Shown: positions 2,617-28,466 of the stretch, piece by piece
How positions within the stretch are numbered: position 1 is the first letter of the stretch
Layout: every line of letters begins with the position of its first letter
NCBI GenBank assembly: GCA_043720335.1
Contig: JAYSSW010000977.1
Coordinates: 1-28,842, forward strand
Length of the DNA: 28,842 nt
DNA from: Planctomycetia bacterium
GTDB taxonomy: Bacteria; Planctomycetota; Planctomycetia; Gemmatales; Gemmataceae
Direction of reading: 5' to 3'
Program-made: the position numbers and the translations under genes
Notes under the pieces: model-generated
Database searches by the model: none
The model's input: the letters and a program-made list of their open reading frames with translations, nothing else
Told to the model about the DNA's origin: nothing

Positions 2617-2719
2617 CGAAAACTCCACCGTCTCGTGCAAACCTTGAATCGGCTGAATCATGGCAGCAAATGAAGTGTCACGCAACACCCATCGCTTGCA
2701 TTCTCGGCTCGCCCCGCCG

Positions 2720-6264: not shown

Positions 6265-6323
6265 CGCGAAAGACGTTCCTCAACGGCGTATACGTCATGC
6301 TCTCGCGATATTGTACCAGCGCT

Positions 6324-10055: not shown

Positions 10056-11384
10056 TCAACCGAACAATTGCAGCAGCGGTTGGCCGACACTGGCGGGGCG
10101 GGTGAAGCCGTCGGGGCTGAGGCGCGTTTCAGGCGGGATGCCGAGGGCGTGGAACAGCGTGGCGCCGAACTGCTCGGGACGGACGGGGAAGTCGCGGACG
10201 GTGGCGCCGTGGCGATCCGACGCGCCGTGGACGGCGCCGCCGCGAATGCCCGCGCCCGCGAGCATCGCGGAGTAGCAAGCGGGCCAGTGGTCGCGGCCTG
10301 CATGCGCGATGCGCGGGGCGCGGCCGAACTCGCCCACCATCACGACCAAGGTGCTGTCGAGCAGGCCGCGCAGCGCGAGGTCTTCGAGCAGCGCGGACAC
10401 GGCTTGGTCGACGTTGGGGAGCGCCCAGCCGAGGCCGAACGCGCCGGTGCCGAACATGCTCCCCAGGCCGGCTCCTTCGCCGTGCATGTCCCAGGTCTGA
10501 ACGTTGCGGAACGTCTCGCCGCGCGGCAAACCTGCCCATGCCGTCACGCTGACGAGTCGCACGCCTGCTTCGACGAGCCGCCGCGCCATCAGCAGGTTCT
10601 GCCCCAGCGCGTGCCGGCCGTAGCGGTCGCGCAGCGGCGTCGGCTCGCGTTCAAGGTCGAAGGCGCGGCGAGCGGCGGGACCGGTCAGCAGATCAACCGC
10701 GCGTTCCAGACACGGGCGCATCGTGTTCGGTGCGGGTTCCGCACGCTGAAGCAGTTGGAGCCGCTGTTGCAGTCGTTCGCGTGGCACGTCGGCGTGCGTG
10801 TCGAAATTCGCGACACGGAAGCCGGGCGTGGAAGGGTTGTCGAGGTCGGTGCCGACACGGAGCGGACTGTAGGACGCGCCGAGGAAGCCGCCCGTGAGGT
10901 AGCGAAGCTGCACGTCGCCGGCGAGGTTCTGCAGCCAAACATACGACGGCAGGTTGCTGCTCGAAGGCCGCAGCTTGGCGGCGACGGAGCCGAAGTACGG
11001 CGTGTCGGCGGTCGGCGCCGAGTGGCCGGTCATGCAGACGTGCATGCCGCCGTCGTGGTTCGGGTCGCCATGCGTCATCGAGCGGATGAGGGCGTAGCGG
11101 TCCGCCATCGACGCCAGGCGCGGCATCAGTTCGCCGATCCTCAGCCCCGGCACGCGCGTGGGAATCGGCCGGTACGGCCCGCGCACGTCCTCCGGCGCGT
11201 CGGGCTTCAGATCCCAGCTGTCATGATGGCTGGCCCCGCCGTACTGCACGATGAAGATGCACGACTTCGCGTTGCTTCGCTGAGCGTCGGCTTGCAGCAA
11301 CTGGGGAAGGCCCAGCCCCAGCATGCCGACGCCGCCGACCTGCAGCAGCCGCCGCCGCGATAGTTTCGCATCATTCGTTTGCAT
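10056..11384 (-). CDS. DUF1501 domain-containing protein with twin-arginine-like N-terminus (442 aa)
   Basis: SRRRLLQVGGVGMLGLGLPQLL leader; KSCIFIVQYGGASHHDSWDLKP, YGRHALGQNLLMARRLVEAGVRLV, WDMH and GEFGRAPR...GRDHW motifs. Confidence 0.88.
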   Translation of the reverse strand: MQTNDAKLSRRRLLQVGGVGMLGLGLPQLLQADAQRSNAKSCIFIVQYGGASHHDSWDLKPDAPEDVRGPYRPIPTRVPGLRIGELMPRLASMADRYALIRSMTHGDPNHDGGMHVCMTGHSAPTADTPYFGSVAAKLRPSSSNLPSYVWLQNLAGDVQLRYLTGGFLGASYSPLRVGTDLDNPSTPGFRVANFDTHADVPRERLQQRLQLLQRAEPAPNTMRPCLERAVDLLTGPAARRAFDLEREPTPLRDRYGRHALGQNLLMARRLVEAGVRLVSVTAWAGLPRGETFRNVQTWDMHGEGAGLGSMFGTGAFGLGWALPNVDQAVSALLEDLALRGLLDSTLVVMVGEFGRAPRIAHAGRDHWPACYSAMLAGAGIRGGAVHGASDRHGATVRDFPVRPEQFGATLFHALGIPPETRLSPDGFTRPASVGQPLLQLFG

Positions 11385-13746: not shown

Positions 13747-15144
13747 CTACCCCAGCCCCGGAATCACGCTCGCTTCGCCCAGGCGCGAGATGGCGCTGTA
13801 CGCGGGAAGCAAGCGCAGTTGCGTCATGTCGACGGTGGCGTGCAGCAGCGTGGAGATGAGGTTGCGCGACGTGTAGGCCTCGGTGGCGGGTTCGCCGCCG
13901 TCGCGGGTGGATTGGCCGACGACGCGGCCCCCCTGCACGCCGCCGCCGAACATCAGAAGCGGGGCGAGCCTGGCCCAGTGGTCGCGGCCGCCGTTGCGGT
14001 TGATGCGCGGCGTGCGGCCCATCTCGCCGGTCGCGACCAGCAGGATCTTGTCGTCCAGGCCGCGCGCTTCCGTGTCGGCGATGAACGCGGCCACGGCGTG
14101 GTCGAACGCACGGCCGATCGCTTCCATGCCTTCGACGACGTTGAGGTTCTCGCCGTCGGCGTGGAAGTCCCAGACGCCTTCGTAGTCGGCGTGGATGGTG
14201 ATGAAGCCGCAGCCCGCCTCGCACAGCCGCCGCGCCAGCAGCAGCAGCTTGCCGATGGAGCGTGCCTGGCCGGCGTAGTAGCCACGTGCGCCGCGGCGGG
14301 TGTAGTCCCACTGGTGCGACGGGACGTAGCGGCTCGTGTCGTAGCGGGCCACGACGCGCGGGTCTTCCCGCGAGAGGTCGAAGGCGTCGGCCACCCGCCC
14401 GCTGAGCAGCACTTCGCACGCCTGCCGCTGGTTGTGGTCGTGCGCTTGGAACTGCGGTTCGTATTCGAGGTCGCGGTTCAGCCGATCGAACTGCGCGGCG
14501 AGCGAGCGGCGGTCGTCGAAGCGGTCGGACGGCAGGTTGAGCCGCAGGTTGCGGAGAAGCTGGCCGGTGCCGCCGGGGATGAACGGGGCGTAGTTGCCGC
14601 CGACCGCGCCGGTCGCAGCGAGATCGCCACGCCCCTGGCCGCGCGCGACTTCGGCGCTGACCGACTGCGGGAAGAGGACGGCGTTCGTCGGCATGCCGGT
14701 CGTCGGATGCATCGCGCCGGCGACGCGCGAATAGAGCGAGCCGATGTTGGCGTTCAGCGATTCGGGGCCGACGATGGGGCGGATGTTGTGCTCGGCGTTG
14801 CCGGTCTGGAACGAGCGGACGATGGCGAGCTTGTGGGCGACGGCGGCGAGCTGCTGCATGGTGCCACCGAAGCGGACGCCGGGGATGGTGGTTTGCACGC
14901 TGCCGTTGAGCGTGCGGATGTCGGCTGGCGCGTCGAGCTTCGGGTCGAACGTCTCGAACTGGCTCGGCCCGCCCTGCTGGAAGAGGAAGATCACCGACTT
15001 GCCGGTGAGCAAGTTCGACACGGGCGACGCCGCCGCGCGTTGAGTCAGCAGCGACGAAAGCGACAGCCCGCCGAGCGTCAAGCCGCCGATGCGGAGCATC
15101 TCGCGCCGCGTGGTGCGCATCGAACTGTCATGGAGCGTGAGCAT
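13747..15144 (-). CDS. DUF1501 domain-containing protein with twin-arginine-like N-terminus (465 aa)
   Basis: Start moved to ATG 15144 (MLTLHDSSMRTTRREMLRIGGLTLGGLSL). Motifs KSVIFLFQQGGPSQFETFDPK, LLLARRLCEAGCGFITI, WDFH and GEMGRTPRINRNGGRDHW. Confidence 0.88.
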   Translation of the reverse strand: MLTLHDSSMRTTRREMLRIGGLTLGGLSLSSLLTQRAAASPVSNLLTGKSVIFLFQQGGPSQFETFDPKLDAPADIRTLNGSVQTTIPGVRFGGTMQQLAAVAHKLAIVRSFQTGNAEHNIRPIVGPESLNANIGSLYSRVAGAMHPTTGMPTNAVLFPQSVSAEVARGQGRGDLAATGAVGGNYAPFIPGGTGQLLRNLRLNLPSDRFDDRRSLAAQFDRLNRDLEYEPQFQAHDHNQRQACEVLLSGRVADAFDLSREDPRVVARYDTSRYVPSHQWDYTRRGARGYYAGQARSIGKLLLLARRLCEAGCGFITIHADYEGVWDFHADGENLNVVEGMEAIGRAFDHAVAAFIADTEARGLDDKILLVATGEMGRTPRINRNGGRDHWARLAPLLMFGGGVQGGRVVGQSTRDGGEPATEAYTSRNLISTLLHATVDMTQLRLLPAYSAISRLGEASVIPGLG

Positions 15145-15210
15145 GGCGGTTCCCCGCGAACGTGCGTTTACTGGTGGGATGAGCAAGCGGCGAGTCGGTT
15201 GGTTGACTCC

Positions 15211-15239
15211 TTTGTAACAGATCGTTCGGAGCGGTTCAA
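15211..15239 (-). promoter_or_regulatory. Candidate sigma70 promoter for the second DUF1501 gene
   Basis: On the minus strand: TTGAAC (15239-15234), 17-nt spacer, TACAAA (15216-15211), preceded by an extended -10 TGn. Confidence 0.35.
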
Positions 15240-15287
15240 TTCTTGAATGCGGGAATCCGAAAGCTCGAAAGCCACGTCGCACTCCGA

Positions 15288-16154
15288 TCATGCGCGCTGC
15301 GCAAGGGCGGCCACGAAGCGGTTGAAGAGCGGACTGCGGTAGCGGAGCTTGCTCCAGACCACGGCCAGTGTGCGGGTCGGCGGATCGCCGGCGATGGAGC
15401 GAAACACCAGGCCGGGATCGCGGCGGACGGCCATCTGCGGCACGAACGACACGCCATGCCCCAGGCGCACCAGCTCCAGCACCGTCGCCAACTGGTGCAG
15501 GTGCGCCGTCGTCACTGGGGCGAGCGCGTGGCGGGCGCAGAACTGTTTCGTCTCGCCCGACAGGCAGTGCGTGTCGTGGAGCAGCACGAACGGCGTGTCG
15601 GCCAGATCCTTCAACCGCAGCTTCGACTTCTCAGCGAACAAATGCTCCGACGGCAGCGCCAGCATCAGCTCTTCCGTCAACAGCGTCTCGACATGCAACG
15701 CCTCGTCCGGCACCGGCAGCGCCACAATCGCCAGGTCGATCTCGCCGTCGGTGATGCGGGCCAGGATCTCCGTCGTCGTCTCCTCGCGCACCTCGACGCG
15801 CGCCTTCGGGTTGTCGGCCGCGAAACGCACCAGCACCTGCGGCAGCAGGTACGGCGCCACGGTCGGGATCGCCGCGACGACGAGCCGGCCCGCCTCCGCG
15901 TCCTCGATGACGCTTGAACGCGCGTCGTCGACCAGCGCCAGGATCTGGTCGACGCGCTCCTTGAAGACTCGGCCCGCGTCGGTGAGCCTGGCGCCTCGTC
16001 CCAGCCGCTCGAAGAGGGGCCGGCCCAGTTCGTGCTCCAGCTTGGCGACCTGCTGGCTGAGCGTCGGCTGCGAGACGTGGCACGCCTCCGCCGCCCGCGT
16101 GAAGTTGCCGAGCTGCGCGAGCTTCGCGAAGTAATGGAGCTGCTGGATTTCCAT
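15288..16154 (-). CDS. oxyR: OxyR, H2O2-sensing LysR-family regulator
   Basis: LysR HTH (MEIQQLHYF...NFTRAAEACHVSQPTLSQQV); IPTVAPYLLP; LLHDTHCLSGETKQFC carries the His-Cys and C-X8-C redox pair of OxyR. Divergent from a catalase. ATG 16154 preferred because ATG 16178 lies inside the operator. Confidence 0.88.
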   Translation of the reverse strand: MEIQQLHYFAKLAQLGNFTRAAEACHVSQPTLSQQVAKLEHELGRPLFERLGRGARLTDAGRVFKERVDQILALVDDARSSVIEDAEAGRLVVAAIPTVAPYLLPQVLVRFAADNPKARVEVREETTTEILARITDGEIDLAIVALPVPDEALHVETLLTEELMLALPSEHLFAEKSKLRLKDLADTPFVLLHDTHCLSGETKQFCARHALAPVTTAHLHQLATVLELVRLGHGVSFVPQMAVRRDPGLVFRSIAGDPPTRTLAVVWSKLRYRSPLFNRFVAALAQRA

Positions 16155-16176
16155 GCGTGCCGCCTTGAAATGCGCC

Positions 16177-16213
16177 ATAGTCGATTCCTATGAATTGTAT
16201 CGACTGCCTCGAT
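16177..16213. promoter_or_regulatory. OxyR binding site
   Basis: ATAG(16177-80)-N7-CTAT(16188-91)-N7-ATCG(16199-202)-N7-CGAT(16210-13) matches 14 of 16 positions of the E. coli OxyR consensus ATAG-N7-CTAT-N7-ATAG-N7-CTAT. A candidate catalase promoter TTGCGT(16213-18)-N18-TACGAT(16237-42) abuts it. Confidence 0.8.
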
Positions 16214-16310
16214 TGCGTTGATGCTCGTCGCGACAGTACGATATGAGCAGCAGTTGGGATCCGGCTCCCGTCCCTTCCAAAGGGAGCGACAACCAGGGGA
16301 GAACCAAGCG

Positions 16311-17846
16311 ATGAAATCGTTCGCATTCGCACTCGTCGCCGTGACGACTCTGTGCCTGGCCGGCACTGTGGCCGCGCAGACGCCCGTCAAGCCGAACATC
16401 ATCGAGGACGGCGGCAAGCCGGTCGAGAACAACCAGGCGGGGCGCGGCGCCGGCGCCAACGGCCCCATGCTGCTCGACAACTTCCACCTGATCCAGAAGC
16501 TCGCCCGCTTCGACCGCGAACGCATCCCCGAGCGCGTCGTCCACGCCCGCGGCGTCGGCGCCCACGGCGAGTTCGTCAGCTACGGCGACCAGTCGAAATT
16601 CACCCGCGCCAAGCTCTTCAGCGCCAAGGACAAGACCACGCCGGTCTTCGTCCGCTTCAGCACCGTCATCCATCCGCAAGGCTCGCCCGAATCGCTCCGC
16701 GACCCGCGCGGCTTCGCCGTCAAGTTCTACACCGAGGAGGGCAACTGGGACCTGGTCGGCAACAACCTGCCCGTCTTCTTCATCCGCGACGCGATGATGT
16801 TCCCCGACATGGTCCATAGCCTGAAGCCCAGCCCCGTCACCAACCAGCAGGACCCCAACCGCTTCTTCGACTTCTTCAGCCACGTCCCCGAGAGCACGCA
16901 GATGCTCACCTTCGTCTACTCCGACATGGGCACCCCCGCCAGCCTGAGGCAGATGGACGGCTTCGGCGTGCACGCTTTCAAGTGGATCAACGCCGAAGGC
17001 AAGACGACGTACGTCCGCTTCAACTGGCGCAGCTTGAACGGGCACAAGAACCACTCCGCCGACGAGGCCGCCGCCGCCACCGCGAAGAACCACAGCAACC
17101 ACACCGACGACTTGTACAAGGCGATCAAGGCGGGCGACTTCCCAAGCTGGGAACTCGCGGTGCAGATGATCGCGCCGGCCGACCTCGCCAAATTCGACTT
17201 CAACCCGCTCGACGCCACGATGATGTGGAACGGCGTGCCCGAGGTCAAAGTCGGCAAGATGACGCTCAACAAGGCGCCGAGCAACTTCTTCCAGTTCACC
17301 GAGCAGGCGGCGTTCTCGCCCGGCATGATCGTCCCAGGCATCGAGCCGAGCGAGGACCGCTTGCTGCAAGGCCGCCTCTTCAGCTACGCCGACACCCAGC
17401 GCTACCGCGTCGGAGCCAACTACCTGATGCTGCCGGTGAACCGCCCGCGCGTCGAGGTCCACAACGGCAACCAGGGCGGCTCGATGAACTTCGGCGTCAC
17501 CCATTCCGACGTGAACTACGAGCCGAGCGTCACGACCGGCAACCGCCGCGACCCGGCGCGCAACGAAGTCGATCTGTCGCAGCTCAACCAGCTCAACCTG
17601 CAGAAGCCGAAGTCGGCCGACTTCAAGCAGGCGGGCGACCTGTACCGCTCGTTCAAAGCGACGGAGAAGGACAACCTCGTCAAGAACCTCGCCGGCGACC
17701 TCGGCCAAGTGAAGGACGCGAAGGTGAAGGCGACCATCGTGTCCCACTTCTACCAGGCCGACCCGGAGTACGGCGCCCGCGTCGGCGAGGCCGTCGGCGT
17801 CACCGTCGAGCAGGTGCGCACGCTGATCTCCCGCGCGAAGGAGTAG
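16311..17846 (+). CDS. katB: Monofunctional small-subunit heme catalase with Sec signal peptide (KatB-like, 511 aa)
   Basis: GGGGAG RBS; signal peptide MKSFAFALVAVTTLCLAGTVAA. Distal His in FDRERIPERVVHARG, Asn in DLVGNN, proximal Tyr in RLFSYADTQ. Confidence 0.93.
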   Translation: MKSFAFALVAVTTLCLAGTVAAQTPVKPNIIEDGGKPVENNQAGRGAGANGPMLLDNFHLIQKLARFDRERIPERVVHARGVGAHGEFVSYGDQSKFTRAKLFSAKDKTTPVFVRFSTVIHPQGSPESLRDPRGFAVKFYTEEGNWDLVGNNLPVFFIRDAMMFPDMVHSLKPSPVTNQQDPNRFFDFFSHVPESTQMLTFVYSDMGTPASLRQMDGFGVHAFKWINAEGKTTYVRFNWRSLNGHKNHSADEAAAATAKNHSNHTDDLYKAIKAGDFPSWELAVQMIAPADLAKFDFNPLDATMMWNGVPEVKVGKMTLNKAPSNFFQFTEQAAFSPGMIVPGIEPSEDRLLQGRLFSYADTQRYRVGANYLMLPVNRPRVEVHNGNQGGSMNFGVTHSDVNYEPSVTTGNRRDPARNEVDLSQLNQLNLQKPKSADFKQAGDLYRSFKATEKDNLVKNLAGDLGQVKDAKVKATIVSHFYQADPEYGARVGEAVGVTVEQVRTLISRAKE

Positions 17847-17870
17847 TCCACGTCGTCGCTGCTTCGGAAT

Positions 17871-17902
17871 GCCGCAGGGGATCGCCCCTGCGGCTTCTTC
17901 TT
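17871..17902 (+). terminator. GC-rich hairpin between catalase and ankyrin genes (terminator or mRNA stabiliser)
   Basis: gccgcagggg-atcg-cccctgcggc: perfect 10-bp stem with 4-nt loop, followed by ttcttctt. Confidence 0.6.
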
Positions 17903-17929
17903 GGCCGCCTTCTCAAAGGATCTCAGCCC

Positions 17930-18532
17930 ATGTTCGCACAACGGCTCTTCCTCGCCGCGTCGCTCATCGTCATTTCAATCTCGCCCGCTTTCGCCGATCC
18001 GCCAGCGAAGAAGCCGATTCCGATCACGCCGGAAGTCGCGGCCAAGCTGCGCGACATCGCGTTCCAGGCGGCGCGCGAAGGCGACCTGGAGACGATGAAG
18101 GCGTACTTCGATTCGGGCCTGTCGGTCAACGACTTCAACGCGCGCGGCGACACGCTGCTGACCGTGGCTGCCTACAACGGCCAGGAGAAAGCGGTTGACG
18201 CGATCCTGGCGCAGCCCAAAGTCGCGGTCGATGCGCGGAACAAGATGGGGCTGACCGCGCTGGCCGCCGCCGGGTTCAAAGGACACACCGCCATCGCTGA
18301 GAGACTGGTCCGCGCCAAGGCCGACGTCAACGCAGCCAACGGCAGCGGGCAGACGGCGCTGATGTTCGCGGCATTATCGGGGCGCGTGAAAACCGTCGAA
18401 TATCTGCTGGCGGTCGGCGCGAACCCGCGAGCCGCCGACACGTCGGGCAACACGGCGCTGAGCCTCGCGCAAGGCCAGGGAGCCGACGCCGTCGTTCGCC
18501 TTCTGGAAACGAAGAGAACGATGAAACCATGA
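17930..18532 (+). CDS. ankB: Exported ankyrin-repeat protein (AnkB-like, 200 aa)
   Basis: AAAGGA RBS, ATG 17930, signal peptide ending AFA. Ankyrin repeats GDTLLTVAAYNG, GLTALAAAGFKG, GQTALMFAALSG and GNTALSLA. Sits directly behind a catalase, as in Pseudomonas katB-ankB. Confidence 0.85.
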   Translation: MFAQRLFLAASLIVISISPAFADPPAKKPIPITPEVAAKLRDIAFQAAREGDLETMKAYFDSGLSVNDFNARGDTLLTVAAYNGQEKAVDAILAQPKVAVDARNKMGLTALAAAGFKGHTAIAERLVRAKADVNAANGSGQTALMFAALSGRVKTVEYLLAVGANPRAADTSGNTALSLAQGQGADAVVRLLETKRTMKP

Positions 18533-18559: not shown

Positions 18560-21500
18560 CTACTTCTTGATCTTCTCCTCCAGTGCCCGCGTCTGCTGGC
18601 GTACGTTCTCGAAGCGGGGCGGCCAGCTTCGCGCGTCGAGGCGGCGCAGCGACTCGCGGGCCTTGTCCCATTGCTGCTCGTGGATCTGGGCGGCGGCCAG
18701 CTTCAGCAGCCCGGTCGGCTCCAGCTCGCGCAGCTTCGCGACCTGCTCCCAGTGCGCGATCGCCTCCGGCCAGCGGTTCTGCTTCTCGCGGATCTCCGCC
18801 AGCATCGCGTGGCTCTCCGTCTCCGTCGACTGCACTTCCACGATCGAAGTATAGGCCCGCTCCGCCTCGCCCGGCTGCTTCAGCGCGTCGTAGCGCTTGG
18901 CGAGGCTCTCGAAAAGCTTCAAGTCGCGCCGCGAGTGCTGCACCGCTTGCAGCAGTTGACGCACCGCTCCCTCGCGGTCGCCCAGCGCGTCGTGGGCGGC
19001 GACCAGCAGCGTGAAAACCTCCGCGTCGTTCGGTTGCAGTTCAACAGCGAGCTCCCACTGCTTGATCGCCTTGGCGTGCTGCTTCATCTCCTGGTACGCC
19101 TGCCCGATCGCCTTGCATACGACGGGGTTTTTGAGCTTCTGCTGGTCGAAGTGCGCGACGAACGCGTCGAGGTCCGGCGACTGCACCAGCACGGACTTCA
19201 ACGTGTCGAGCGCCTTGGCCCGGCCGTCCGCGTGCCCGCCCCACGCGACCACGGCGCCGCCGGCCGCATCGACCGCTTCGGGCGTTTTCTTCAGTCCGGC
19301 GTAAGCCCGCGCCAGCCCCTGGTAGTACGCCGCCAGCTCGCCATCGCCGACGCCGCGGTTCGCCCGGCTGCGCTCGTGCAGCGGGATCAGCTCCTTGTAG
19401 TACGCGACCGACGGCTCGTACAACTCGTTCTCCAGCATGCTGTGGGCGAGCTGGCTGAGCGGGCCTTCGCCCCAGCGGCCCTTCTCGTGGAAGTGCGCGT
19501 CGGTCTGCTTGAGCAGTGCCAGCAGTTCCGCTTTGCGGTCGGTGCGGAAGTAAGAGTGCATGAGCAGCGTGCGGTAGCTCATCGACTCCGGCTGGCGCTC
19601 GACAAGCGGCTGCAGCAGCGCGATCGATTCGCCATGCCGCTTTTCGCGATGGAGGTAGTTGACGAGCTTCCCCTGTCCCGCTTCGTCGAGCCGCTTCTGG
19701 CCATGCGAGACGAAGAGGATCTCGGTGGCGCGCTTCCGCAGATCGAGCGTGTGGACCAGGTAGTCGGCGACGTGCTGCGCGGTGAGATTGGAATGCTTGC
19801 GCTGGGCCAGCACCTCTTCGGCGACCTTCTCGTAGTCGGCGCGGTTGGTCTTCCAGAAGTGATAATCCACGCGATGATGGGGCAGTTCCTCGCGGCGTTC
19901 GACGCTGCGGCGCAGCTCCGCCAGCACGAGCTTGAGGAGCCTCCCCTTCACGTCGGCCATCTCCTTGGTCTCCTCGAACCAGCCGAGCAGCGAGCCGCCG
20001 TGGACGCGCCAGCCGTCGCGGCCGAGGTGCCGCAGCCAGCGCGGCTCGCGGTCGATCTCGTCGAGCAGGAACACGATCCCCTCGCGCGGCCCCGCCACGC
20101 TGCGCAGCGTGCTCGCCACCGCTCCCACCATCGAGTCGCGGCCGCTCGTCTGCTCCTTCAGCAGCGGCGGCAGAGCCTTCGCCACGAACCCCTTCAAGTC
20201 CGCCGCCACGCCGGGAATCTTCAGGTCGTGCGCCGAGTCGTAGGTCCGCATGAGCAGCGAAACCAGCTGGTGGCGGTGGTTGGCGTCGGGGTCGGCGAGG
20301 GCCTTCCGAATCCGGGCGGCGAGTGCCTGGTACAGCTCAGCGCCCTTGCCGAGCGACACGTCCGCCTTGTGCTGCAAGGCGCGGAGGTAGTGCGCGTCGA
20401 GCCGTTCGACCAGCCAGCGGCGCTGCTGCGAATGGGCGGGATGCTTGAGCTGCGCGAGCAGGACTGTTTCGCCGCGCGCGAAGTGGCCGGCCGACACGAG
20501 CAGGTCGACGTAGGTGTCGAGCGCGGCGTTGGCGACGACGGGCAGCACCCCCTGGTTCGCCGCCTCGAACTCGTCGAGCGCGGCCTGCATCACGTCCGTG
20601 GCGTCGGCGACGCGGCCGCGGCCCCGCAGCGTCCTCGCGTGGCAGTGCGCGATCTGGAAGCGGTCCAGCGATCCCGCCGCCGAATCGGCGTGCAGCGCCT
20701 TCAGCTGCCGAAGCTGCTCGTCGGCCAGCGCGGGCTGCGAGATGGCGCCCAGCCCCGCGAGCAGCTCCGCCATCCGGCGCGGCTCGCCCGGCGACCACGC
20801 CCGCTTGAACGCGCGCTGCAGTGCGGCCAGCGCCTTCTCCCGGTGCGGGCCGGGCTGGTTCAGCAGCTCCGACGCGCGCCGCTCCACCTGCGCTTCGAGC
20901 AGGTCGAGCGCACGCTCATCGACAGCGGTCTTGGCGTGGGGCCGAACCTCGGCGATCCGCTTCACGATCTCGTCGGCGGTCGCTTCGTCGCGGACCTCGT
21001 CGAGCACCGACTGCATGCCGCCCAGGAACGGGTAGACCTTCGCCGCCGTGTGGCCGACGACCGCGTCGGGCAGGCCGGACAACAGGCGGAAATCGTGCGA
21101 CGCCTGGTACGATTGCTGGAGCTGGTGCAGGTAGGCGTGCGGCGTCGCCGACTTGTCGAACAGCACCGCGAACAGGCGCAGCACCTCCGGGTCCAGCTCG
21201 GTAGGCAGCTTGCCGTCGCGGCTGTGCCAGGGCGCCATCTTCGCCGCGATCATCCGGCTCAGCTGCTGCTCGGACGTCGTTTGGTAGACTTTCAGCGCCG
21301 CCCGCTCGCTCGCTGCGCGCTGGCCTTGGATGAGAAGCCAGTCGGCCAGCGAACGGTACTCGCGCGGGCCGAGTTCGTCCGCCGCCTCGAACTGCTGGAT
21401 CGCCTCGGCCAGCTTCCCCTGCTCGGCCAGCAGATGGCCCAGCGCCAGCCGCCAGTGGTTGTCGTCGTCCTGCGCCGACCACTGCCGCAGCGAGACTTCC

Positions 21501-24500
21501 AGTTCCTTGTTGCGGTCGAGCGCGATGAGCAGGCGCATCTTCGCGGACTTCCAGCCGGCCGAACCCTCCTTGCCTTCCGCCTCGATCGCCTGGTCGTGAT
21601 GCTTCACCAGTCGTTCGACGAGCGCCGGCTCGGCGCCCTTCCGCGCGGCCAGGTTCGTGAGCGTCACCAGGTGGCGCTGACGCAGCGCCGCTTCCAACGC
21701 CTGCTCGATGGTCGGCTCGTCGATGCGCTTCTTCGGCGCCGCTCCCATCACTTCCCACGCCTCGGCGACGGCGCGCTTCAGGCTGCGGTCGAGCGGCACG
21801 TCGAGGTAGACGCTCTCCGCGACCAGCCACGCCGCCAGCGCCTTCGGCCGCTTCGCCGACTCCTTGAACAGCCGATCCGCGAGGGCTTCCCGCGCCGCGC
21901 GGCGGAGGTCGGCGTGCTTCTTCTGCAGGTCGGTGCGTGACAGCTTCTCCGGATGCTCGATCGCGCCGGCCGCGGCCGCGACGCGGTTCGCCAACATGCG
22001 GTCGGTGAGCCGATGCGCCGCCGACACGGCGGCGACCAGCCGTTCGCCCGGTTCTTCCGCGTCAGATTGTTTATCGAGCAGCGCGAGCGATTCGTCCTCG
22101 ATGGCGGCGGTCCAGGGGGCGCCGAGCAGCCGCTCGAACAGCCGGCCCGCGTACTCGGCGCGGTGCTTCTCCGGCCCCGTCAGCCGCTGCAGGCGCAGGA
22201 ACGCCAGCGGCTCGCTCTCGCTGCCGAAGCTCGCCAGGATGATGGCGAGGAAGTCGCCGAGGTCGTGCTTCTCGTCTTCGTCGCTGGATTTCGTCCAGCG
22301 CTGCCGCAGCGCGGCGACGACGCGGTCCCAGGCCGCCTTGTCGAGCGTGTCGTTGTTCAGCCAGCCGTGGAAGCGGCGGATCTGCGCGACCGACAGCTTG
22401 TCGAGGTCGCGCACGAACACCGCGCCGAGCGCCTTGCGCAACGGCCCGATTTCGTCGGTGTTGCGCAGGTGCGACAGGATGCTGCTGGTGGTGTCGTGCA
22501 GCCGGGGATGCAGCGCGAAGTCGAGGGCCGCCTTCGCCAGCGGGTCGAGCCAGCGGTCCTCGACGGGGCCGGGATGGCCGGTGAAGCTGCGCCGCGTCTC
22601 CCCGCTGAGATGGTCGACCGCCGCGCGCAGACGGCTGACGACCGGGTCGGTCGCTTCCTTCGTGGCATGCGCTTCCTGCAGCCAGCGAAGCGCGAACGCC
22701 TCCGCCTTCTGCGGCTGATCGGTCAGGACGAGGGCGCGGAGGAGCTGCGCATAGGCGGACAGGTTCGCGGGTCCGCGCTCGACCCACGCTGCGAGATAGT
22801 CGGCCAGGTCGGCGTAGCGGCCCTGCTGTTCCAGCAGCGCCGCGTAGGCGGTGAGAAGCGCCGCCTCCTCGCCGTCGTTCCATTTCGCGTCCTTGCCGAG
22901 AGCGCGCGTCAGCCAGGCGTAGGCGCCGGCGTAGTCGCCGGCCGCCGCCAGGGCCTGGGCGTGGTCGCGCTGCAGAGCGACGTCGCGCGGATGGTCGTCC
23001 GCGAGCTGCTTGCGCAGCTTCGCCGCCTCGTCGGAGGCGAGATGCGCGAGCCGGTGGAGCAGCCAATGTTTGCGGGCCTGCAGATGCGGCGGCTGCTTGT
23101 CGTGGGTCGGCCGCAGCGCGTCGAGCAGCGCCAGGGATTCGGCGTGCTGCAGCACGCGCGCCGACGTGTCGAGAAGATGCCCGGCCAGGAAATAGGCCTC
23201 GGCGCCGGCGTCCTTGGCGACGCGGGCGGCTTCCTGGAGCTGCCAAAGACGAAGCTCGTCGTGGCGCCGGCTGTCGTTGAGGATCGCCGCACGCAGCCAA
23301 CGCAGGCCCGGCTTCCCCTGCGCGGCCTTCTCAGCGCGCTGCAGGTGGTCGAGCACCTTGTCCCATTGCTGGCTGGCGTGGAAGTGCAGCATCAGCAGGA
23401 ACTCGTCGCCGAAGGTTGCCTTGCCCGCCGCGTGCGCCTTCTTCGCCGCCGCCACGCTCGGCAGCGGCAGGTGCAGGAACTGCACCGCGTCGCGCCCAAC
23501 CAGCTCCGTCTTCGTCCGCTGCGCCAGCTCGTCCGGCGTGAGCGACTTCACCGTCTGCGTGGCGAGCGACGTGCGCTTGCCGTCCGCGTTGGTGGCCTCG
23601 ATCTTCCGCGCCCACCAGCCGCCGGCGACCTCGACGAAATCGTCGAACTTCGTCGTGTCGAAGAGTTTGCCGTTGTCGCGGTTCTCGACCGACAAGACGA
23701 CGTGCCGGACGGTATCGACGAGGATGCGCGTCTCGTAGCGGTGCACCTTCAGCACGAGCAGCGCGCGGTCCTTGCCCTGCGCTTCGACGGTTGGCGTGTA
23801 GCTCGCGAATTCCCTTTCGACCGACACGGCCGAATGATCGCCGAGAGCGAGTTGCAGCGTCCCGTCGAGCGGCGTGGCGGCGCGGGTTCGGCCCAGCTGG
23901 AACGCCTTCGAGAAGGCGCCAACCTCCTTGCCATCGTTCCATGAAACGAGCGTCTGTCCGCCGTCGCTCGCGGTGCGGACGAGCCAGGTCTTGGCGGACG
24001 CGAGATCGAGCCGGCGCGAGCGCGTGGCGAGTTCGCCCCAGCGCGGCTCGAACGTGTCGGTCTGCCGAACGATTTCGACGCCACCAGCCATCTTCGCAAT
24101 CTGCTCGCTGCGCAGCAGGCTCGCCGCCAGCTCGCGCGCCGCCGCCGGCCACGCCGATTTCGCCGGCTTCGACTTCGCGGGGATCGGAGTCAATGTTGGG
24201 AAAAGCATGTTTAACCAGGAAGAATGCCCTCTCCGCAACAAGCGATGCGTTCCACCTGTAGGCGCGAAATCGAGCGCGAGCACGCGGATTCGTTCCGTTT
24301 GCATGTTCAAAGGAGAGCCATTGGCTTCATCGAAAAAGAAGGGACTTGCGTCGTTCAACGCCCTGATGGGGTCGTTGAGCACCAACCTTTCTTCCACGCT
24401 TTGGAACTCCATTTCTAATCCCCACTCCTCCTTTTTCGCCTCGTCGCTGAAGAAATCGCTTAAGCCATCCATGCTCCGTGACTCATCGACGACCCCGAAC

Positions 24501-27500
24501 CGATCGAACTCGCGGACTTCCGCGCTGAGTCGCTCGGAGGGAGCGAAACCCGCGCTGATGTCGCCCAGATCCCCGAGCTCCAAAAACATGTCTTTGAAAG
24601 CAACTTCGGCTCGGCCTCCCCGAAGGAACCACTTGTTCGAGTCTCGTTTCACGGGCATGGGAAACTCCATCCGCCGCGATCCGATCGGCCCCCGGCCCAG
24701 CTTCGCGAGGTCGGCCAGCACGGCGCGGCGCAGCGCGGTGCGCCAGTCGGCGGCGGCTTTCCGCTGCTTCTGCGCCAGGTCGAAGACGGCGTTGTCGCGG
24801 CCGTCGGCGAAGAAGCGCTCGCCGTCGCGCATCAGGAAACGCCGTTTCATCTTGAACCGCTCGCGGTCGGCGTCGGTCTCCAGCACCAGCAGCGACGTGT
24901 ACGGCGTGATGATCTGGAACTCCTCCGAAAGCCCGATGATCTCGTCCTTCACCGCGCTCGACGCGCCTTGCTCCAGCAGGCTGTCGAGGTGCATCCGCGC
25001 CCACAGCCGGGGGATGAACGCGTTGCCCAGCTCGGCGTCCTTGAACGACGCACGGGCCGTGAAACGGACCGGCTTGTCCCCCTGCATGCCGGTGACGACC
25101 ACCTCGCCCGCCTGGTCCTTGCCATCGGGCAGGTAGCGGCCCAGCAGGATCTGCTGCGTGCCTGCGGGGACGTTCGCCAGCGACTCCGGGTAGACGCGGG
25201 CGGCCTTGAAGCCCTTGAACTCGACCTTCACGTCGCGCAGCGCGGGCTGGGCGATCTCGGCGAGCAGTTCCCGCGCGATGGCGGGCGGGCCTTGCTCGCT
25301 GGAGATGCGCCGCATCGACCCGCTCCCCAGCGACGCGATCGCCTTCATCACGCCCGCCTCGTAGGTGCTGCCGAGCGTCACCGCGTGGAACACGGCGCCC
25401 CCCTGGTGCAGCCTGCGCAGCCGTTTCGCGAACGCCACCGGGTCGCCGTCGCCGCTGGTGACGATGCCGTCGCCGACGTAAACGACATGCGTCTTCGGCC
25501 CGCACTGCTTCAGCGCGGAGGCGAAGGCGACATCGAGGTTCGTCCAGCCCAGCGACGTGCGGCGAGCCAAAAAATCACGCGCAGCGACGACCTGGCTCGC
25601 CTCGGCGGACGCCGGCATCACGAAGGCCCAGTCGCAGGTCACGTCGCACGTCGCCAGGTTGAACGTGTCCTTCGGCGACAGCGACGCCAGCAGTGACGCG
25701 ACGAATGTCGCTTGCGCGGCGCGTTGTCCAGCATCAATGGACGCCGACGTGTCGGCCAGAACCAGCAGGTGCAGCGGTTCGCCGTTCGGCAGGATCGGCC
25801 GATCCCAGTCGCCCCCCGCGCCGGGCGGCGTGAGTTGGAGCATGAAGTAGCCGTCGTCGCCGCGGCGGTGCGGGATCATCACCACGTCGGACTGACGCCC
25901 TTCGACTTCGACGACGACCTCGAAGTCGCGCGTCGGCGTGTACTCCTGGGCGCTGAACTCGACGTGGGCCGAGTGCGCCGTCCTGGCGTCGCGCGTCGTG
26001 TGCGTCGGCGACGACACGCTGCGCAGCGGCACGGCGGAGTTCACCTTCACGTCGAGGTTCAGCTCGCGCAGCGGGTGCTGCTGCAGCATGTCGCTTTGCA
26101 AGGCGTAGCTGTACCGATAGCGGCTCCCCTTCAGCGGCAGCACCTGCGTGTAGGTGATCTTGATCCGCTTCTCCGCGTTCGGCGGGATCGGGAACACGCG
26201 GGCCTTGAACAGGTTGCCGCCCGACCATTCGAGCAGGCCGGGGTCGCGCTTTTCGCGCAGGATGGTCTCGAAGATCTCGCGGGCGCGCTGCTTCTCGACC
26301 ACGTCGGCTTCGACGTAGTTGTCGCCGATCCACATGCCGAAACCGGAGATCGACGCGTCCTGCGGCAGCGGGAAATGGAAGACCCCTTCCAGTTCCGTTT
26401 TGGTGTGGTTGACGAACGATTCCTCAATGACGGTGCGGGCGATCTGGTCGCGGATGTCGACGGTGACCTTGTGGTAGCCGACCGTGAGCGGCACGTTGCG
26501 GCCATCGACGAGGGCGACGAGCGAGCCAAGCGACTCGTTCGCGGTCGCCCCCTTGAAGCCGAGCAGCCAAGGGGGATCCTTCTCGACGCGCACCAGTTGC
26601 GAGGCGTTTTTCGCGTTCTCCACGCGGTAGAACTGGCGATCCTTCACCGCGACTTTTTGCTGGTTCGGTCCCAACAGTTCGATGGTCGTGCCGGTCGTCG
26701 GGACGATTTCGAGCTGGCCTTCGACGAGGCGGATCGTTTTCGGGCTGACGAGTTCGACGAGCGTTTTCGGCCCCAGAATCACGCCGGTCTGCTTGGCGAG
26801 CCGCAGCGCCGCCGCGTTGGCGCCGCGCGCGTCGGTGCGGATCCAGTCGCCCGGCTTGAGGACCAGGTTCTCGCGGAGCGGCGTCCAGCGTTCGTGCAGC
26901 ACCGGCCGAATCGCGACGATTCCTTGCACATCGCCCACCTTGCCGATGCGGCCGTCCTCGGTCAGCGTGTCGGCGATCTTGAACTTCTCCGCGCCAATCG
27001 GCTGGTCGTAGGCGACGACGGTCAACGAGGCGAACACTTCGCTCTTGCCGTCGCGCTCGATCAGCGTGCGCAGCGATTGGAGACGCCCGGTCTTGGCGTC
27101 CACGGTTGCTTCGAGTCGTTTCGGCGTCTCCTTGAGATTGGGCAAATCGACGCGATAGGTGAGCAATTCGCGGTCGCCCTCGTGAACCTGGTCCGCAGGC
27201 AGCGCGTGAACGTAGTTCTCCAAGCCTTTTCCTTGGGGCAGGCCGAGCATGTCGCGCCACGACGACGGTTGAGCGGTGCGGCGGGCTTCGTTCGTGCTTT
27301 CGCGGACGGTCCACGAGTTGCCTTCGTCGACGATGCGGTAGTTGCCGTCGAGGTCGTCGAGCCGCGAACGGGGCGGCTGGCTGGTCTGCCAGAACTCGTA
27401 GGTCTTGCCGCCGCGCACGAGGCGTGCGTGCAACGTGCCGGCCTGGTCGAACTGGTCGAACGCCTGACCGAGCGTGAGGCTTGGCGACGTGAGCGCGATC

Positions 27501-27754
27501 CAGGCGTAGGCCGACACGCCGACGAGGACGACGGCGGCAGCGGCGCCCGCGAGCCAGCGACGGTAGAACATGGGACGTTTCCTCGGTTCGACGGGGAGGG
27601 GAGAACCGGCCACGAACGCGTCGGTCGACTGCGCGCGCAGCTTGGCGAGAAATTCGGCTTCGGGGGGCGCGGCGGCGCTTTCGGACGCGGCCAACGCGGC
27701 GGCGAGCTGCTCCTCGTCCTTCGCGTCGTCCGGCACGGGTTCATGCGGATCCAT
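18560..27754 (-). CDS. Giant (3064 aa) membrane-anchored putative anti-sigma factor: TM helix, FecR-like, VIT, vWA (MIDAS) and long TPR-like region
   Basis: ATG 27754 with GAGG RBS overlaps the ECF sigma end by 14 nt. TM helix near 27490-27560; FecR-like block near 26700-26950 (GKVGDVQG...LKPGDWIRTD...IRLVEGQLEI); VIT near 26140-26540 (HKVTVDIRDQIARTVIEESFVN...EGVFHFPLPQDASISGFGMWIG...RDPGLLE); vWA with DTSAS at 25739-25753, plus GWTNL and YVGDG; helical TPR-like repeats across about 18570-23400. Confidence 0.85.
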   Translation of the reverse strand: MDPHEPVPDDAKDEEQLAAALAASESAAAPPEAEFLAKLRAQSTDAFVAGSPLPVEPRKRPMFYRRWLAGAAAAVVLVGVSAYAWIALTSPSLTLGQAFDQFDQAGTLHARLVRGGKTYEFWQTSQPPRSRLDDLDGNYRIVDEGNSWTVRESTNEARRTAQPSSWRDMLGLPQGKGLENYVHALPADQVHEGDRELLTYRVDLPNLKETPKRLEATVDAKTGRLQSLRTLIERDGKSEVFASLTVVAYDQPIGAEKFKIADTLTEDGRIGKVGDVQGIVAIRPVLHERWTPLRENLVLKPGDWIRTDARGANAAALRLAKQTGVILGPKTLVELVSPKTIRLVEGQLEIVPTTGTTIELLGPNQQKVAVKDRQFYRVENAKNASQLVRVEKDPPWLLGFKGATANESLGSLVALVDGRNVPLTVGYHKVTVDIRDQIARTVIEESFVNHTKTELEGVFHFPLPQDASISGFGMWIGDNYVEADVVEKQRAREIFETILREKRDPGLLEWSGGNLFKARVFPIPPNAEKRIKITYTQVLPLKGSRYRYSYALQSDMLQQHPLRELNLDVKVNSAVPLRSVSSPTHTTRDARTAHSAHVEFSAQEYTPTRDFEVVVEVEGRQSDVVMIPHRRGDDGYFMLQLTPPGAGGDWDRPILPNGEPLHLLVLADTSASIDAGQRAAQATFVASLLASLSPKDTFNLATCDVTCDWAFVMPASAEASQVVAARDFLARRTSLGWTNLDVAFASALKQCGPKTHVVYVGDGIVTSGDGDPVAFAKRLRRLHQGGAVFHAVTLGSTYEAGVMKAIASLGSGSMRRISSEQGPPAIARELLAEIAQPALRDVKVEFKGFKAARVYPESLANVPAGTQQILLGRYLPDGKDQAGEVVVTGMQGDKPVRFTARASFKDAELGNAFIPRLWARMHLDSLLEQGASSAVKDEIIGLSEEFQIITPYTSLLVLETDADRERFKMKRRFLMRDGERFFADGRDNAVFDLAQKQRKAAADWRTALRRAVLADLAKLGRGPIGSRRMEFPMPVKRDSNKWFLRGGRAEVAFKDMFLELGDLGDISAGFAPSERLSAEVREFDRFGVVDESRSMDGLSDFFSDEAKKEEWGLEMEFQSVEERLVLNDPIRALNDASPFFFDEANGSPLNMQTERIRVLALDFAPTGGTHRLLRRGHSSWLNMLFPTLTPIPAKSKPAKSAWPAAARELAASLLRSEQIAKMAGGVEIVRQTDTFEPRWGELATRSRRLDLASAKTWLVRTASDGGQTLVSWNDGKEVGAFSKAFQLGRTRAATPLDGTLQLALGDHSAVSVEREFASYTPTVEAQGKDRALLVLKVHRYETRILVDTVRHVVLSVENRDNGKLFDTTKFDDFVEVAGGWWARKIEATNADGKRTSLATQTVKSLTPDELAQRTKTELVGRDAVQFLHLPLPSVAAAKKAHAAGKATFGDEFLLMLHFHASQQWDKVLDHLQRAEKAAQGKPGLRWLRAAILNDSRRHDELRLWQLQEAARVAKDAGAEAYFLAGHLLDTSARVLQHAESLALLDALRPTHDKQPPHLQARKHWLLHRLAHLASDEAAKLRKQLADDHPRDVALQRDHAQALAAAGDYAGAYAWLTRALGKDAKWNDGEEAALLTAYAALLEQQGRYADLADYLAAWVERGPANLSAYAQLLRALVLTDQPQKAEAFALRWLQEAHATKEATDPVVSRLRAAVDHLSGETRRSFTGHPGPVEDRWLDPLAKAALDFALHPRLHDTTSSILSHLRNTDEIGPLRKALGAVFVRDLDKLSVAQIRRFHGWLNNDTLDKAAWDRVVAALRQRWTKSSDEDEKHDLGDFLAIILASFGSESEPLAFLRLQRLTGPEKHRAEYAGRLFERLLGAPWTAAIEDESLALLDKQSDAEEPGERLVAAVSAAHRLTDRMLANRVAAAAGAIEHPEKLSRTDLQKKHADLRRAAREALADRLFKESAKRPKALAAWLVAESVYLDVPLDRSLKRAVAEAWEVMGAAPKKRIDEPTIEQALEAALRQRHLVTLTNLAARKGAEPALVERLVKHHDQAIEAEGKEGSAGWKSAKMRLLIALDRNKELEVSLRQWSAQDDDNHWRLALGHLLAEQGKLAEAIQQFEAADELGPREYRSLADWLLIQGQRAASERAALKVYQTTSEQQLSRMIAAKMAPWHSRDGKLPTELDPEVLRLFAVLFDKSATPHAYLHQLQQSYQASHDFRLLSGLPDAVVGHTAAKVYPFLGGMQSVLDEVRDEATADEIVKRIAEVRPHAKTAVDERALDLLEAQVERRASELLNQPGPHREKALAALQRAFKRAWSPGEPRRMAELLAGLGAISQPALADEQLRQLKALHADSAAGSLDRFQIAHCHARTLRGRGRVADATDVMQAALDEFEAANQGVLPVVANAALDTYVDLLVSAGHFARGETVLLAQLKHPAHSQQRRWLVERLDAHYLRALQHKADVSLGKGAELYQALAARIRKALADPDANHRHQLVSLLMRTYDSAHDLKIPGVAADLKGFVAKALPPLLKEQTSGRDSMVGAVASTLRSVAGPREGIVFLLDEIDREPRWLRHLGRDGWRVHGGSLLGWFEETKEMADVKGRLLKLVLAELRRSVERREELPHHRVDYHFWKTNRADYEKVAEEVLAQRKHSNLTAQHVADYLVHTLDLRKRATEILFVSHGQKRLDEAGQGKLVNYLHREKRHGESIALLQPLVERQPESMSYRTLLMHSYFRTDRKAELLALLKQTDAHFHEKGRWGEGPLSQLAHSMLENELYEPSVAYYKELIPLHERSRANRGVGDGELAAYYQGLARAYAGLKKTPEAVDAAGGAVVAWGGHADGRAKALDTLKSVLVQSPDLDAFVAHFDQQKLKNPVVCKAIGQAYQEMKQHAKAIKQWELAVELQPNDAEVFTLLVAAHDALGDREGAVRQLLQAVQHSRRDLKLFESLAKRYDALKQPGEAERAYTSIVEVQSTETESHAMLAEIREKQNRWPEAIAHWEQVAKLRELEPTGLLKLAAAQIHEQQWDKARESLRRLDARSWPPRFENVRQQTRALEEKIKK

Positions 27755-28352
27755 GGTCGGCCTCTTCGGGATGGATCGTTGGATCGGCGTGCTTGCGATA
27801 CGCTTCGCGGAATGCCTGCCGGGCACGGCTGAGTTTGGAGCGGATCGCGACTTCGGTGCTGTGCTCGCGGCTCGCGATCTGTGCGACCGTGTCGCCGTCG
27901 AGATAGCGCGACGTGAGCAGCAAAGCGTGGTCGGCGGAAAGTTCGGTCAGCACGGCCCGCACCTGCGTCGCCCGTTCGGCGTTCACCAGAAGATCCGCCG
28001 GCTCCACGCCATCGATGGACGCGAGCAGCTTGCCGTTGCAGGCGGCGTGGCCAACCATCAGGCGGCGGCGCTGGTCCTGGTTGCGCAGGTGCAGGGCGAC
28101 ATGGTTGTGGGCGACGCCCCAGAGCCAGGACCAGAGCGAGCCGCGTGCGGGATCGAACGAGCGGGCGGAGCGGGCGGCGGCCATCATCGTCTCCTGCACC
28201 ACGTCGGCCACGTCGGTGCTGCCGCCGCCGAGCAGGCGCGCGACGCCGCGCCAGACGCGAACGGCGTAGGCGTCGTAGAGCGACTGCCAGGCGTCGGCCC
28301 TGCCTTCGCGCAGTCCCTGCGCGATCAATCGGTCGTGGGATTCGTCCTGCAT
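27741..28352 (-). CDS. ECF (sigma-70 family) RNA polymerase sigma factor (203 aa)
   Basis: Start at MQDESHD (ATG 28352). Region 2: LYDAYAVRVWR...DVADVVQETMMAA...FDPARGSLWSWLWGVAHN. Region 4: LSADHALLLTSRYLDGDTVAQIA...AIRSKLSRARQAFR. Confidence 0.9.
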   Translation of the reverse strand: MQDESHDRLIAQGLREGRADAWQSLYDAYAVRVWRGVARLLGGGSTDVADVVQETMMAAARSARSFDPARGSLWSWLWGVAHNHVALHLRNQDQRRRLMVGHAACNGKLLASIDGVEPADLLVNAERATQVRAVLTELSADHALLLTSRYLDGDTVAQIASREHSTEVAIRSKLSRARQAFREAYRKHADPTIHPEEADHGSA

Positions 28353-28466
28353 CCAGGGTTCGCCGTGGGGACCGGAGGGCCGGAGGAGTTCCAGCAAACC
28401 TAACAACTCTTTGCGCGCCGGGCTGCAAATGGGTCGGAGAATCTTGAGATTGCACAGCGATTCATG

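Follow-up and report, generated by a model that had tools for sequence, protein, structure and literature searches.

Pairs of extracytoplasmic function (ECF) sigma factors and anti-sigma factors are a standard signalling device, whose sensing part tends to be small and whose regulon tends to reach past the pair itself. In the RpoE-RseA-RseB system of E. coli and the AlgU-MucA-MucB system of Pseudomonas, a sigma-E-like ECF factor from an autoregulated operon is held by a single-pass anti-sigma factor with a cytoplasmic sigma-binding N-terminus, and the periplasmic partner, RseB or MucB, has a LolA-like domain. The FecI-FecR-FecA and PupI-PupR systems combine a FecR-type regulator with a TonB-dependent transducer and an STN domain. 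Here we describe a locus from a planctomycete, a member of a group whose envelope biology is still debated, in which an ECF sigma gene overlaps the gene of a 3,064-residue protein. The locus lies in a stretch of 28,842 nucleotides, called the window throughout, that makes up positions 1 to 28,842 of contig JAYSSW010000977.1 (Planctomycetia bacterium, Gemmataceae, GenBank assembly GCA_043720335.1). Our reading, to which we give a probability of roughly 60%, is that the two genes form a self-contained, autoregulated sigma/anti-sigma loop built on a large exported protein. It is not FecR/TonB cell-surface signalling.

Like RpoE-RseA-RseB and AlgU-MucA-MucB, the window system pairs a sigma-E-like ECF factor with a single-pass protein whose cytoplasmic N-terminus is predicted to bind it, places a LolA-like domain on the far side of the membrane and appears to be autoregulated. 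It differs in that the RseB-like domain is fused in cis, the anti-sigma part has two helices and not four, a core of 2,800 residues is attached and the regulon is apparently limited to the operon; the Pfam families RseA_N, RseA_C and MucB_RseB find no match. A precedent for an anti-sigma factor with an extracytoplasmic von Willebrand factor A (vWA) domain is offered by the ECF289-type anti-sigmas, in which vWA is fused to DUF3520 (Casas-Pastor et al. 2021, PMC7826278); that paper gives no proteobacterial member for ECF289, naming one, CnrH, just for the related group ECF291. However, the window's sigma factor probably belongs to a different ECF group, and the window protein alone has a VIT domain, LolA-like domains and a giant solenoid.

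The sigma gene (27741..28352; like every feature of the pair described below, on the minus strand) encodes 203 residues. It matches Sigma70_r2 (PF04542, 51.7 bits) and Sigma70_r4_2 (PF08281, 25.6 bits) of Pfam as well as TIGR02937 (66.6 bits against a cut-off of 42.9), and with regions 2 and 4 present, region 3 missing and a length close to the expected ~200 residues, it is an ECF (group 4) factor. No NCBIfam sigma subfamily reaches its cut-off (the best is TIGR02989, 64.8 bits against 124.55), and the nearest solved structures by profile are E. coli sigma-E (1or7, 6.2e-25), AlgU and SigW. The large gene (18560..27754, 3,064 codons plus stop) lies in a minus-strand open reading frame (ORF) that is open throughout from 18560 to 27826. 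Its ATG at 27754, with a GAAGAGG box upstream, is supported by homologues, which begin at the same methionine (MNP..); 14 nt are shared between the start of the large gene and the end of the sigma gene. The gene pair and its overlap are thus as reported in a preliminary description, which had been made from the letters of this DNA. Across orthologous loci, the sigma stop and the large-gene start overlap in 23 of 32 cases, most often by 4 or 11 nt. The large frame is a real gene, because more than 670 proteins match its product and more than 100 of them are collinear with it over ~3,000 residues at 45-63% identity; named homologues come from Gemmataceae, Zavarzinella formosa, Thermoguttaceae and Pirellulales. 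Apart from the sigma gene, the large gene had no conserved neighbours in the three long contigs compared.

Residues 1-62 of the large protein (27569..27754) form an acidic cytoplasmic segment, the predicted anti-sigma part, in which two helices, DEEQxAxLL and PPDxxFLxRLRxxST, are conserved over 33 orthologous loci. A single membrane helix follows (residues 67-93, 27476..27556; Kyte-Doolittle mean 1.98), the sole hydrophobic helix of the protein, and because the KR-rich PRKRPMFYRR lies ahead of it, the N-terminus should face the cytoplasm. Both the short cytoplasmic N-terminus and the one membrane helix had been proposed in the preliminary description, which also saw in this N-terminus the anti-sigma part. 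Sigma and residues 1-62 were co-folded on our own alignments of 33 rows each, in three runs and with three controls; the complex reached an ipSAE of 0.79 in every run, against 0.01 for the best control. Of 80 solved complexes, 58 attain the 0.79 mark, as do 2 of 110 mismatched pairs, a rough yardstick since the alignments were own-built. In the models, residues 13-50 of the segment contact sigma residues 14-64 (region 2) and 124-185 (region 4), and clamping of regions 2 and 4 is the usual way in which anti-sigma factors block a sigma factor. The co-fold supports, as a prediction, binding of the sigma factor by residues 1-62 and agrees with the role first proposed for them.

Beyond the membrane helix, residues 95-260 (26975..27472) are modelled by AlphaFold2 as a half-barrel of the LolA/RseB/LprG kind, with a mean predicted local distance difference test (pLDDT) score of 86.9. 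Foldseek relates this domain to RseB (1.2e-5) and MucB (1.3e-5), and also to LolA; VIA comparisons give Z values from 12.1 to 8.3, among which RseB (8.8) scores lower than generic LolA/LppX chains. The Pfam family MucB_RseB finds no match in this region, and what is shared with RseB is the fold of its N-domain alone. The domain belongs to the anchor module of the protein and not to the core that follows.

The link between the architecture of the large protein and the presence of a sigma gene was tallied across 105 loci. Forms with a membrane helix and a LolA-like domain, the window's own type, have a sigma gene adjacent at 50 loci and none at one. Forms that join the same cytoplasmic anti-sigma segment to a membrane helix only (Zavarzinella type) have it at all 12 loci, forms with a membrane helix and some other module at all four, and forms with a plain signal peptide at none of 19. 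Membrane-anchored forms are thus accompanied by a sigma gene in 66 of 67 cases and signal-peptide forms in 0 of 19. These proportions depend on sampling: sigma-linked loci account for 9 of the 27 evaluable ones in an unbiased sample, compared to 66 of 70 evaluable among the 80 closest named loci, and signal-peptide forms without a neighbouring sigma gene make up about two thirds of the phylum-wide family sample. That sample yielded carriers in 40 of 301 genomes, nearly always with a single match, and a species collection holds a relative in 376 genomes. The ~2,800-residue core is one family in Planctomycetota, an unnamed family of giant VIT-vWA-solenoid proteins with which the window protein is collinear over its full length, from the DGR motif described below to the C-terminal repeats, and the sigma/large-gene unit is widespread in planctomycetes. 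The coupling of this architecture to a sigma factor, suggested in the preliminary description, is borne out by the survey, in which adjacency tracks the membrane-anchored forms; the idea of a one-off architecture gives way to a large conserved family. Among the papers searched, we found no study of this family and none that joins "VIT domain" with "anti-sigma".

The same data bear on a simpler arrangement, in which the sigma factor merely drives a structural or adhesive envelope protein whose N-terminus is a plain anchor, and the sigma is under the control of some other factor. The absence of any match between the cytoplasmic segment and a known anti-sigma family would agree with such an arrangement, and co-fold scores express the confidence of a model. 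However, it leaves unexplained why 33 loci keep the cytoplasmic motif, why the co-fold lies far above its controls, why adjacency to a sigma gene requires a cytoplasmic segment plus a membrane helix and never goes with a plain signal peptide, and why two unrelated anti-sigma-type modules, as shown below, were recruited to the same core. We consider it very improbable.

The 260-nt stretches ahead of 33 sigma orthologues were searched for a shared two-part word. The search returned CGACACA-N13-GCGCAAA; the best word pair was present at 17 of 33 loci, whereas shuffled sequences never gave more than 5. Allowing up to two mismatches, the motif occurs at 27 of the 33. The window's copy, CGACCCA-N13-GCGCAAA (28410..28436), ends 57 nt before the sigma ATG and is a candidate ECF-type autoregulated promoter. 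A position weight matrix (PWM) was then built from the other genomes only, leaving the window out, with the reversed PWM as control. By this measure the window's copy ranks first in its own 6.1-Mb assembly, at 23.0 bits against a control maximum of 18.3, and all hits after the second fall below that control value. In four more distant genomes (group f2) and one genome with a signal-peptide form, motif counts stay at control level. Within the limits of such a scan, the recognisable target of the sigma factor in this 85%-complete assembly would be its own operon.

The second hit, at 22.0 bits, lies inside the coding sequence of hicB on contig C581; it was rejected as a promoter and taken as a chance match. 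That contig (genome G000, L151) carries a hicB-hicA toxin-antitoxin pair at 985-1559.

The core of the large protein begins near residue 261 with the motif (T/S)L(T/S)(D/E)DGR(I/V)G, exactly where the signal-peptide forms of the family begin. Its first domain, at residues ~264-402 (26549..26965), is a beta domain with the periplasmic fold of FecR/PupR: the AlphaFold2 model of residues 300-402 superposes on PupR (6ovm_R) with a VIA Z of 9.7 and a root-mean-square deviation of 2.4 A over 94 residues, and on 4m0h with a Z of 8.2. Pfam FecR (PF04773) finds no match even at E<=1 in residues 1-456, 1-265 or 255-430, and with a likeness of fold alone the window copy was rejected as a member of the FecR family. 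The VIT domain that follows (residues 428-535, 26150..26473; PF08487, 103 bits) is the most conserved part of the protein, at 84-88% identity over 29 homologues. In the vWA domain (residues 663-813, 25316..25768; VWA_3, PF13768, 38.3 bits), the residues of the metal ion-dependent adhesion site (MIDAS), D668, S670, S672, T738 and D762, do not vary among 18 homologues. The order of VIT and then vWA with a complete MIDAS is that of the inter-alpha-trypsin-inhibitor heavy chains (ITIH) and of bacterial VIT-vWA surface proteins (TIGR03788; XrtN and MSEP-CTERM targets). TIGR03788 itself, the model of marine proteobacterial sortase targets, matches residues 554-965 (1.4e-58) at 198.8 bits, far below the cut-off of 551.65 for membership, and in contrast to its members the window protein has no sorting signal, is five times longer and is tethered to a sigma factor.

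A conserved post-vWA region (residues 814-1021, 24692..25315), into which the TIGR03788-like match extends as far as residue 965, is 65-77% identical among homologues and ends in a long helix (~975-1021). After it comes a variable linker of ~155 residues (1022-1177, 24224..24691), a low-GC, in-frame segment that is disordered in the model (pLDDT <50); at 10-24% identity and 32-51% gaps, no other part of the family is less conserved or richer in gaps. Residues ~1225-1405 (23540..24082) are a second LolA-like domain, modelled with a pLDDT above 90 and related by Foldseek to LolA3 (3.6e-9) and to other LolA, LolB and RseB chains; Pfam has a weak LolA_like match at residues 1342-1403. A helical solenoid occupies the remainder, residues ~1435-3064 (18563..23452), where the AlphaFold2 model turns to helical repeats, at 40-70% identity and with a gap fraction near 0 over 1,850 residues of 29 homologues. 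Canonical tetratricopeptide repeats (TPRs) are recognised by Pfam near residues 1574-1673 and 2879-3042 alone, TPR matches to PDB sequences are confined to roughly the final 190 residues, and the features of the solenoid in the ESM Atlas are TPR clusters and generic TPR. The C-terminal TPRs match PrsT, PgaA and PilW and are of the kind seen in export scaffolds for polysaccharides and pili. Taken together, the MIDAS vWA, the two lipid-carrier-like barrels, of which one belongs to the core and the other to the anchor, and the solenoid of fixed length fit a scaffold of the envelope or surface, although they point to no particular ligand.

Compared with this picture, the domain list of the preliminary description was right about the VIT domain and about a vWA domain with intact MIDAS, and partly right elsewhere. 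Its "FecR-like block" has the PupR fold at residues 300-402 and no match to Pfam FecR, and of its roughly 1,600 residues of TPR-like repeats the helical repeats stand, at ~1435-3064, with canonical TPRs confined to the two places named. What it called a beta-rich block is in fact the second LolA-like domain, and it left out both the LolA/RseB-like domain right after the membrane helix and the disordered linker.

The core also invites the reading that was first proposed for it, a one-protein surface signalling system in which binding of an external macromolecule by the MIDAS vWA and the solenoid switches on a wider set of genes. The invariant MIDAS residues, the FecR-fold domain within the core, the supported coupling of anti-sigma and sigma and the true FecR module found on the same core in some lineages all speak in its favour. 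However, the only convincing promoter copy in the genome stands at the operon itself, and about two thirds of the sampled family do without a sigma factor, so that the core needs no signalling for its job. In addition, a solenoid of fixed length and nearly free of indels looks like a defined structure rather than a variable ligand binder. A TonB-dependent transducer is missing as well: there is no TonB-dependent receptor among the window ORFs scanned, as the preliminary description had observed, and the whole assembly yields one marginal Plug match (24.2 bits). We regard this reading as unlikely. The narrower label of FecR-type cell-surface signalling, also given to the locus before, does not fit the window copy, because there is neither a Pfam FecR match nor a transducer, nor an STN domain; the sigma factor is moreover nearest to sigma-E. 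Unlike in the FecR systems, the FecR-fold domain of this family sits in the core, and it is present in secreted forms that have no sigma factor.

A genuine FecR module does occur in the family, in lineages other than that of the window. Five other sigma-linked loci fall among the signal-peptide forms on the core tree. Four of them (L052, L057, L061 and L062) carry, beside the sigma gene and on the same core, a longer cytoplasmic segment and a membrane helix, together with a domain that matches Pfam FecR at 23.8-36.3 bits (L052, L057 and L061 lie above the cut-off of 24 bits), a feature shared with FecI-FecR-FecA. We take their cytoplasmic segment for a conventional anti-sigma domain; zf-HC2 gives one weak, sub-threshold match among the four, in L062. 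The fifth locus (L046) has no FecR match. The sigma factors of these loci are 20-24% identical to that of the window, compared to 59% for the Zavarzinella sigma. Because the modules are unrelated and the sigma factors distant, the core was wired to an ECF sigma factor at least twice; two unrelated anti-sigma modules were joined to the same core, and the true FecR type is found in other lineages, not in the window.

Part of the window's own anchor module likewise occurs beyond this core. A word-based search for stand-alone relatives of residues 1-262 found nothing; an exhaustive profile search with the window-type module recovered a planctomycete family of ~710 residues (proteins P0191-P0254) that combines a membrane helix, a LolA-like module and CarboxypepD_reg repeats. 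The LolA-like module of this family is 28% identical to residues 95-260 (E 2e-11), so the combination of membrane helix and LolA-like module is portable. At the one locus read (P0197, L157:3042-5695), the first base of the gene coincides with the final base of an ECF sigma gene. This family thus resembles the window protein in its module and, at that locus, in its neighbour, but differs in its exported part and in a distantly related sigma factor; it is also uncharacterised.

On a tree of the core (FastTree, midpoint rooted, with local support only), the signal-peptide forms branch at the base as a paraphyletic group, and the window-type forms fall in one clade of 79 rows. Nested inside this clade is the Zavarzinella-type group, in which the LolA-like domain was lost and only 8-17 residues separate the membrane helix from the core. 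In five genomes with signal-peptide forms, the best matches to the sigma profile score 111-122 bits and may or may not be orthologues.

Two loci, L105 and L123, keep an anti-sigma-type N-terminus and have no upstream sigma ORF detected, which could reflect gene loss, a frameshift or an assembly fault. At a third, L045 (G220), an open frame of 687 residues, whose sigma-like domain matches the sigma profile with an E of 3.8e-31, lies ~1.9 kb upstream of a signal-peptide form on the opposite strand and may encode a sigma fusion protein near a sigma-less member of the family.

The junction between anchor and core raises the possibility that the sigma factor reports on export. The anchor would be cut at the (T/S)L(T/S)(D/E)DGR junction, the core would leave and the anti-sigma stub would be degraded, so that sigma activity would report how much core has been exported or shed. 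In the free forms, the signal-peptidase sites directly precede the same junction motif; the short spacing of 8-17 residues in the Zavarzinella-type forms and a regulon apparently limited to the operon agree with this scheme. Yet no cleavage motif or protease was identified, the idea being drawn from domain boundaries alone, and no A-x-A site is evident after the Zavarzinella-type membrane helix. On balance we think it improbable, though less so than a plain anchor.

The autoregulated loop that we prefer would work as follows. The sigma factor would be co-produced with the single-pass membrane protein, whose first ~50 cytoplasmic residues, folded into two helices, are predicted to clamp it between its regions 2 and 4 and so prevent it from engaging RNA polymerase. 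The exported part would consist of the anchor-side LolA/RseB-like domain and then the core, with its FecR-fold domain, VIT, vWA, helix and linker, LolA-like domain and solenoid. Because a free signal-peptide form exists in other planctomycetes, the core must have an envelope job of its own. Perturbation of the exported part, by a ligand at the MIDAS, a lipid in the LolA-like pockets, or loss or cleavage of the core, may then be the trigger. The anchor would presumably be degraded by regulated proteolysis, as is the case for RseA or RsiW, and the sigma factor set free to read CGACCCA-N13-GCGCAAA before its own gene. Since it would read its own promoter, the main and perhaps only output would be more sigma factor and more large protein. 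The net effect would be a replenishing, homeostatic loop for an envelope protein and not a relay to a wider regulon. A sharper version, which we put forward tentatively and with more doubt than trust, is a closed circuit in which each molecule carries a sigma-holding tag, the operon is the sole target, shedding of the core at the junction destroys the tag and triggers replacement, and the core has been wired in this way at least twice with unrelated modules.

Several points count against the loop. All support for it is computational: the genes, the domains, the family, the adjacency rule, the motif and the predicted interface. Residues 1-265 have no Pfam match and so no anti-sigma domain recognisable by sequence, and a profile of residues 1-62 retrieves only noise from the PDB and no anti-sigma domain; the class I anti-sigma domain has four helices and the segment two. 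Sigma/anti-sigma complexes are well represented among solved structures, which tempers the weight of the co-fold. On the side of the promoter, no copy of the motif was found at the f2 loci, so that the motif as written is limited to the closer relatives of the window. With an assembly 85% complete and a scan that detects only operon-like promoters, other targets may exist. The sequencing runs that contain window DNA are sediment-metagenome DNA only, with no RNA among them.

If the loop is as proposed, its anti-sigma factor is a small end piece of an exported protein of 3,000 residues; across the orders of planctomycetes, this protein retains 45-63% identity. The loop would offer a concrete case of a cell that monitors one large envelope component via a private sigma factor. 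The promoter, the sigma factor and cultivable hosts (Gemmata, Zavarzinella, Pirellula staleyi and Telmatocola) together provide a handle on a large family of which we found no study.

The rest of the window holds genes of other kinds. Convergent to the large gene, and ending 28 nt from its stop, are a catalase gene (16218-17846, plus strand) and an ankyrin-repeat ORF that ends at 18532; a LysR-type regulator (15288-16178, minus) is divergent from the catalase gene. The layout of the three at 15288-18532 recalls, as we take it, oxyR-katB-ankB of Pseudomonas. Further upstream on the map lie two DUF1501 genes (281 and 193 bits; 10056-11384 and 13747-15291, both minus) with unannotated ORFs between them; the DUF1501 family is common in planctomycetes. 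A three-gene cluster at 2720-9641 (minus) encodes a transglutaminase, a circularly permuted ATP-grasp protein fused to alpha-E, and a transglutaminase-DUF2126 protein.

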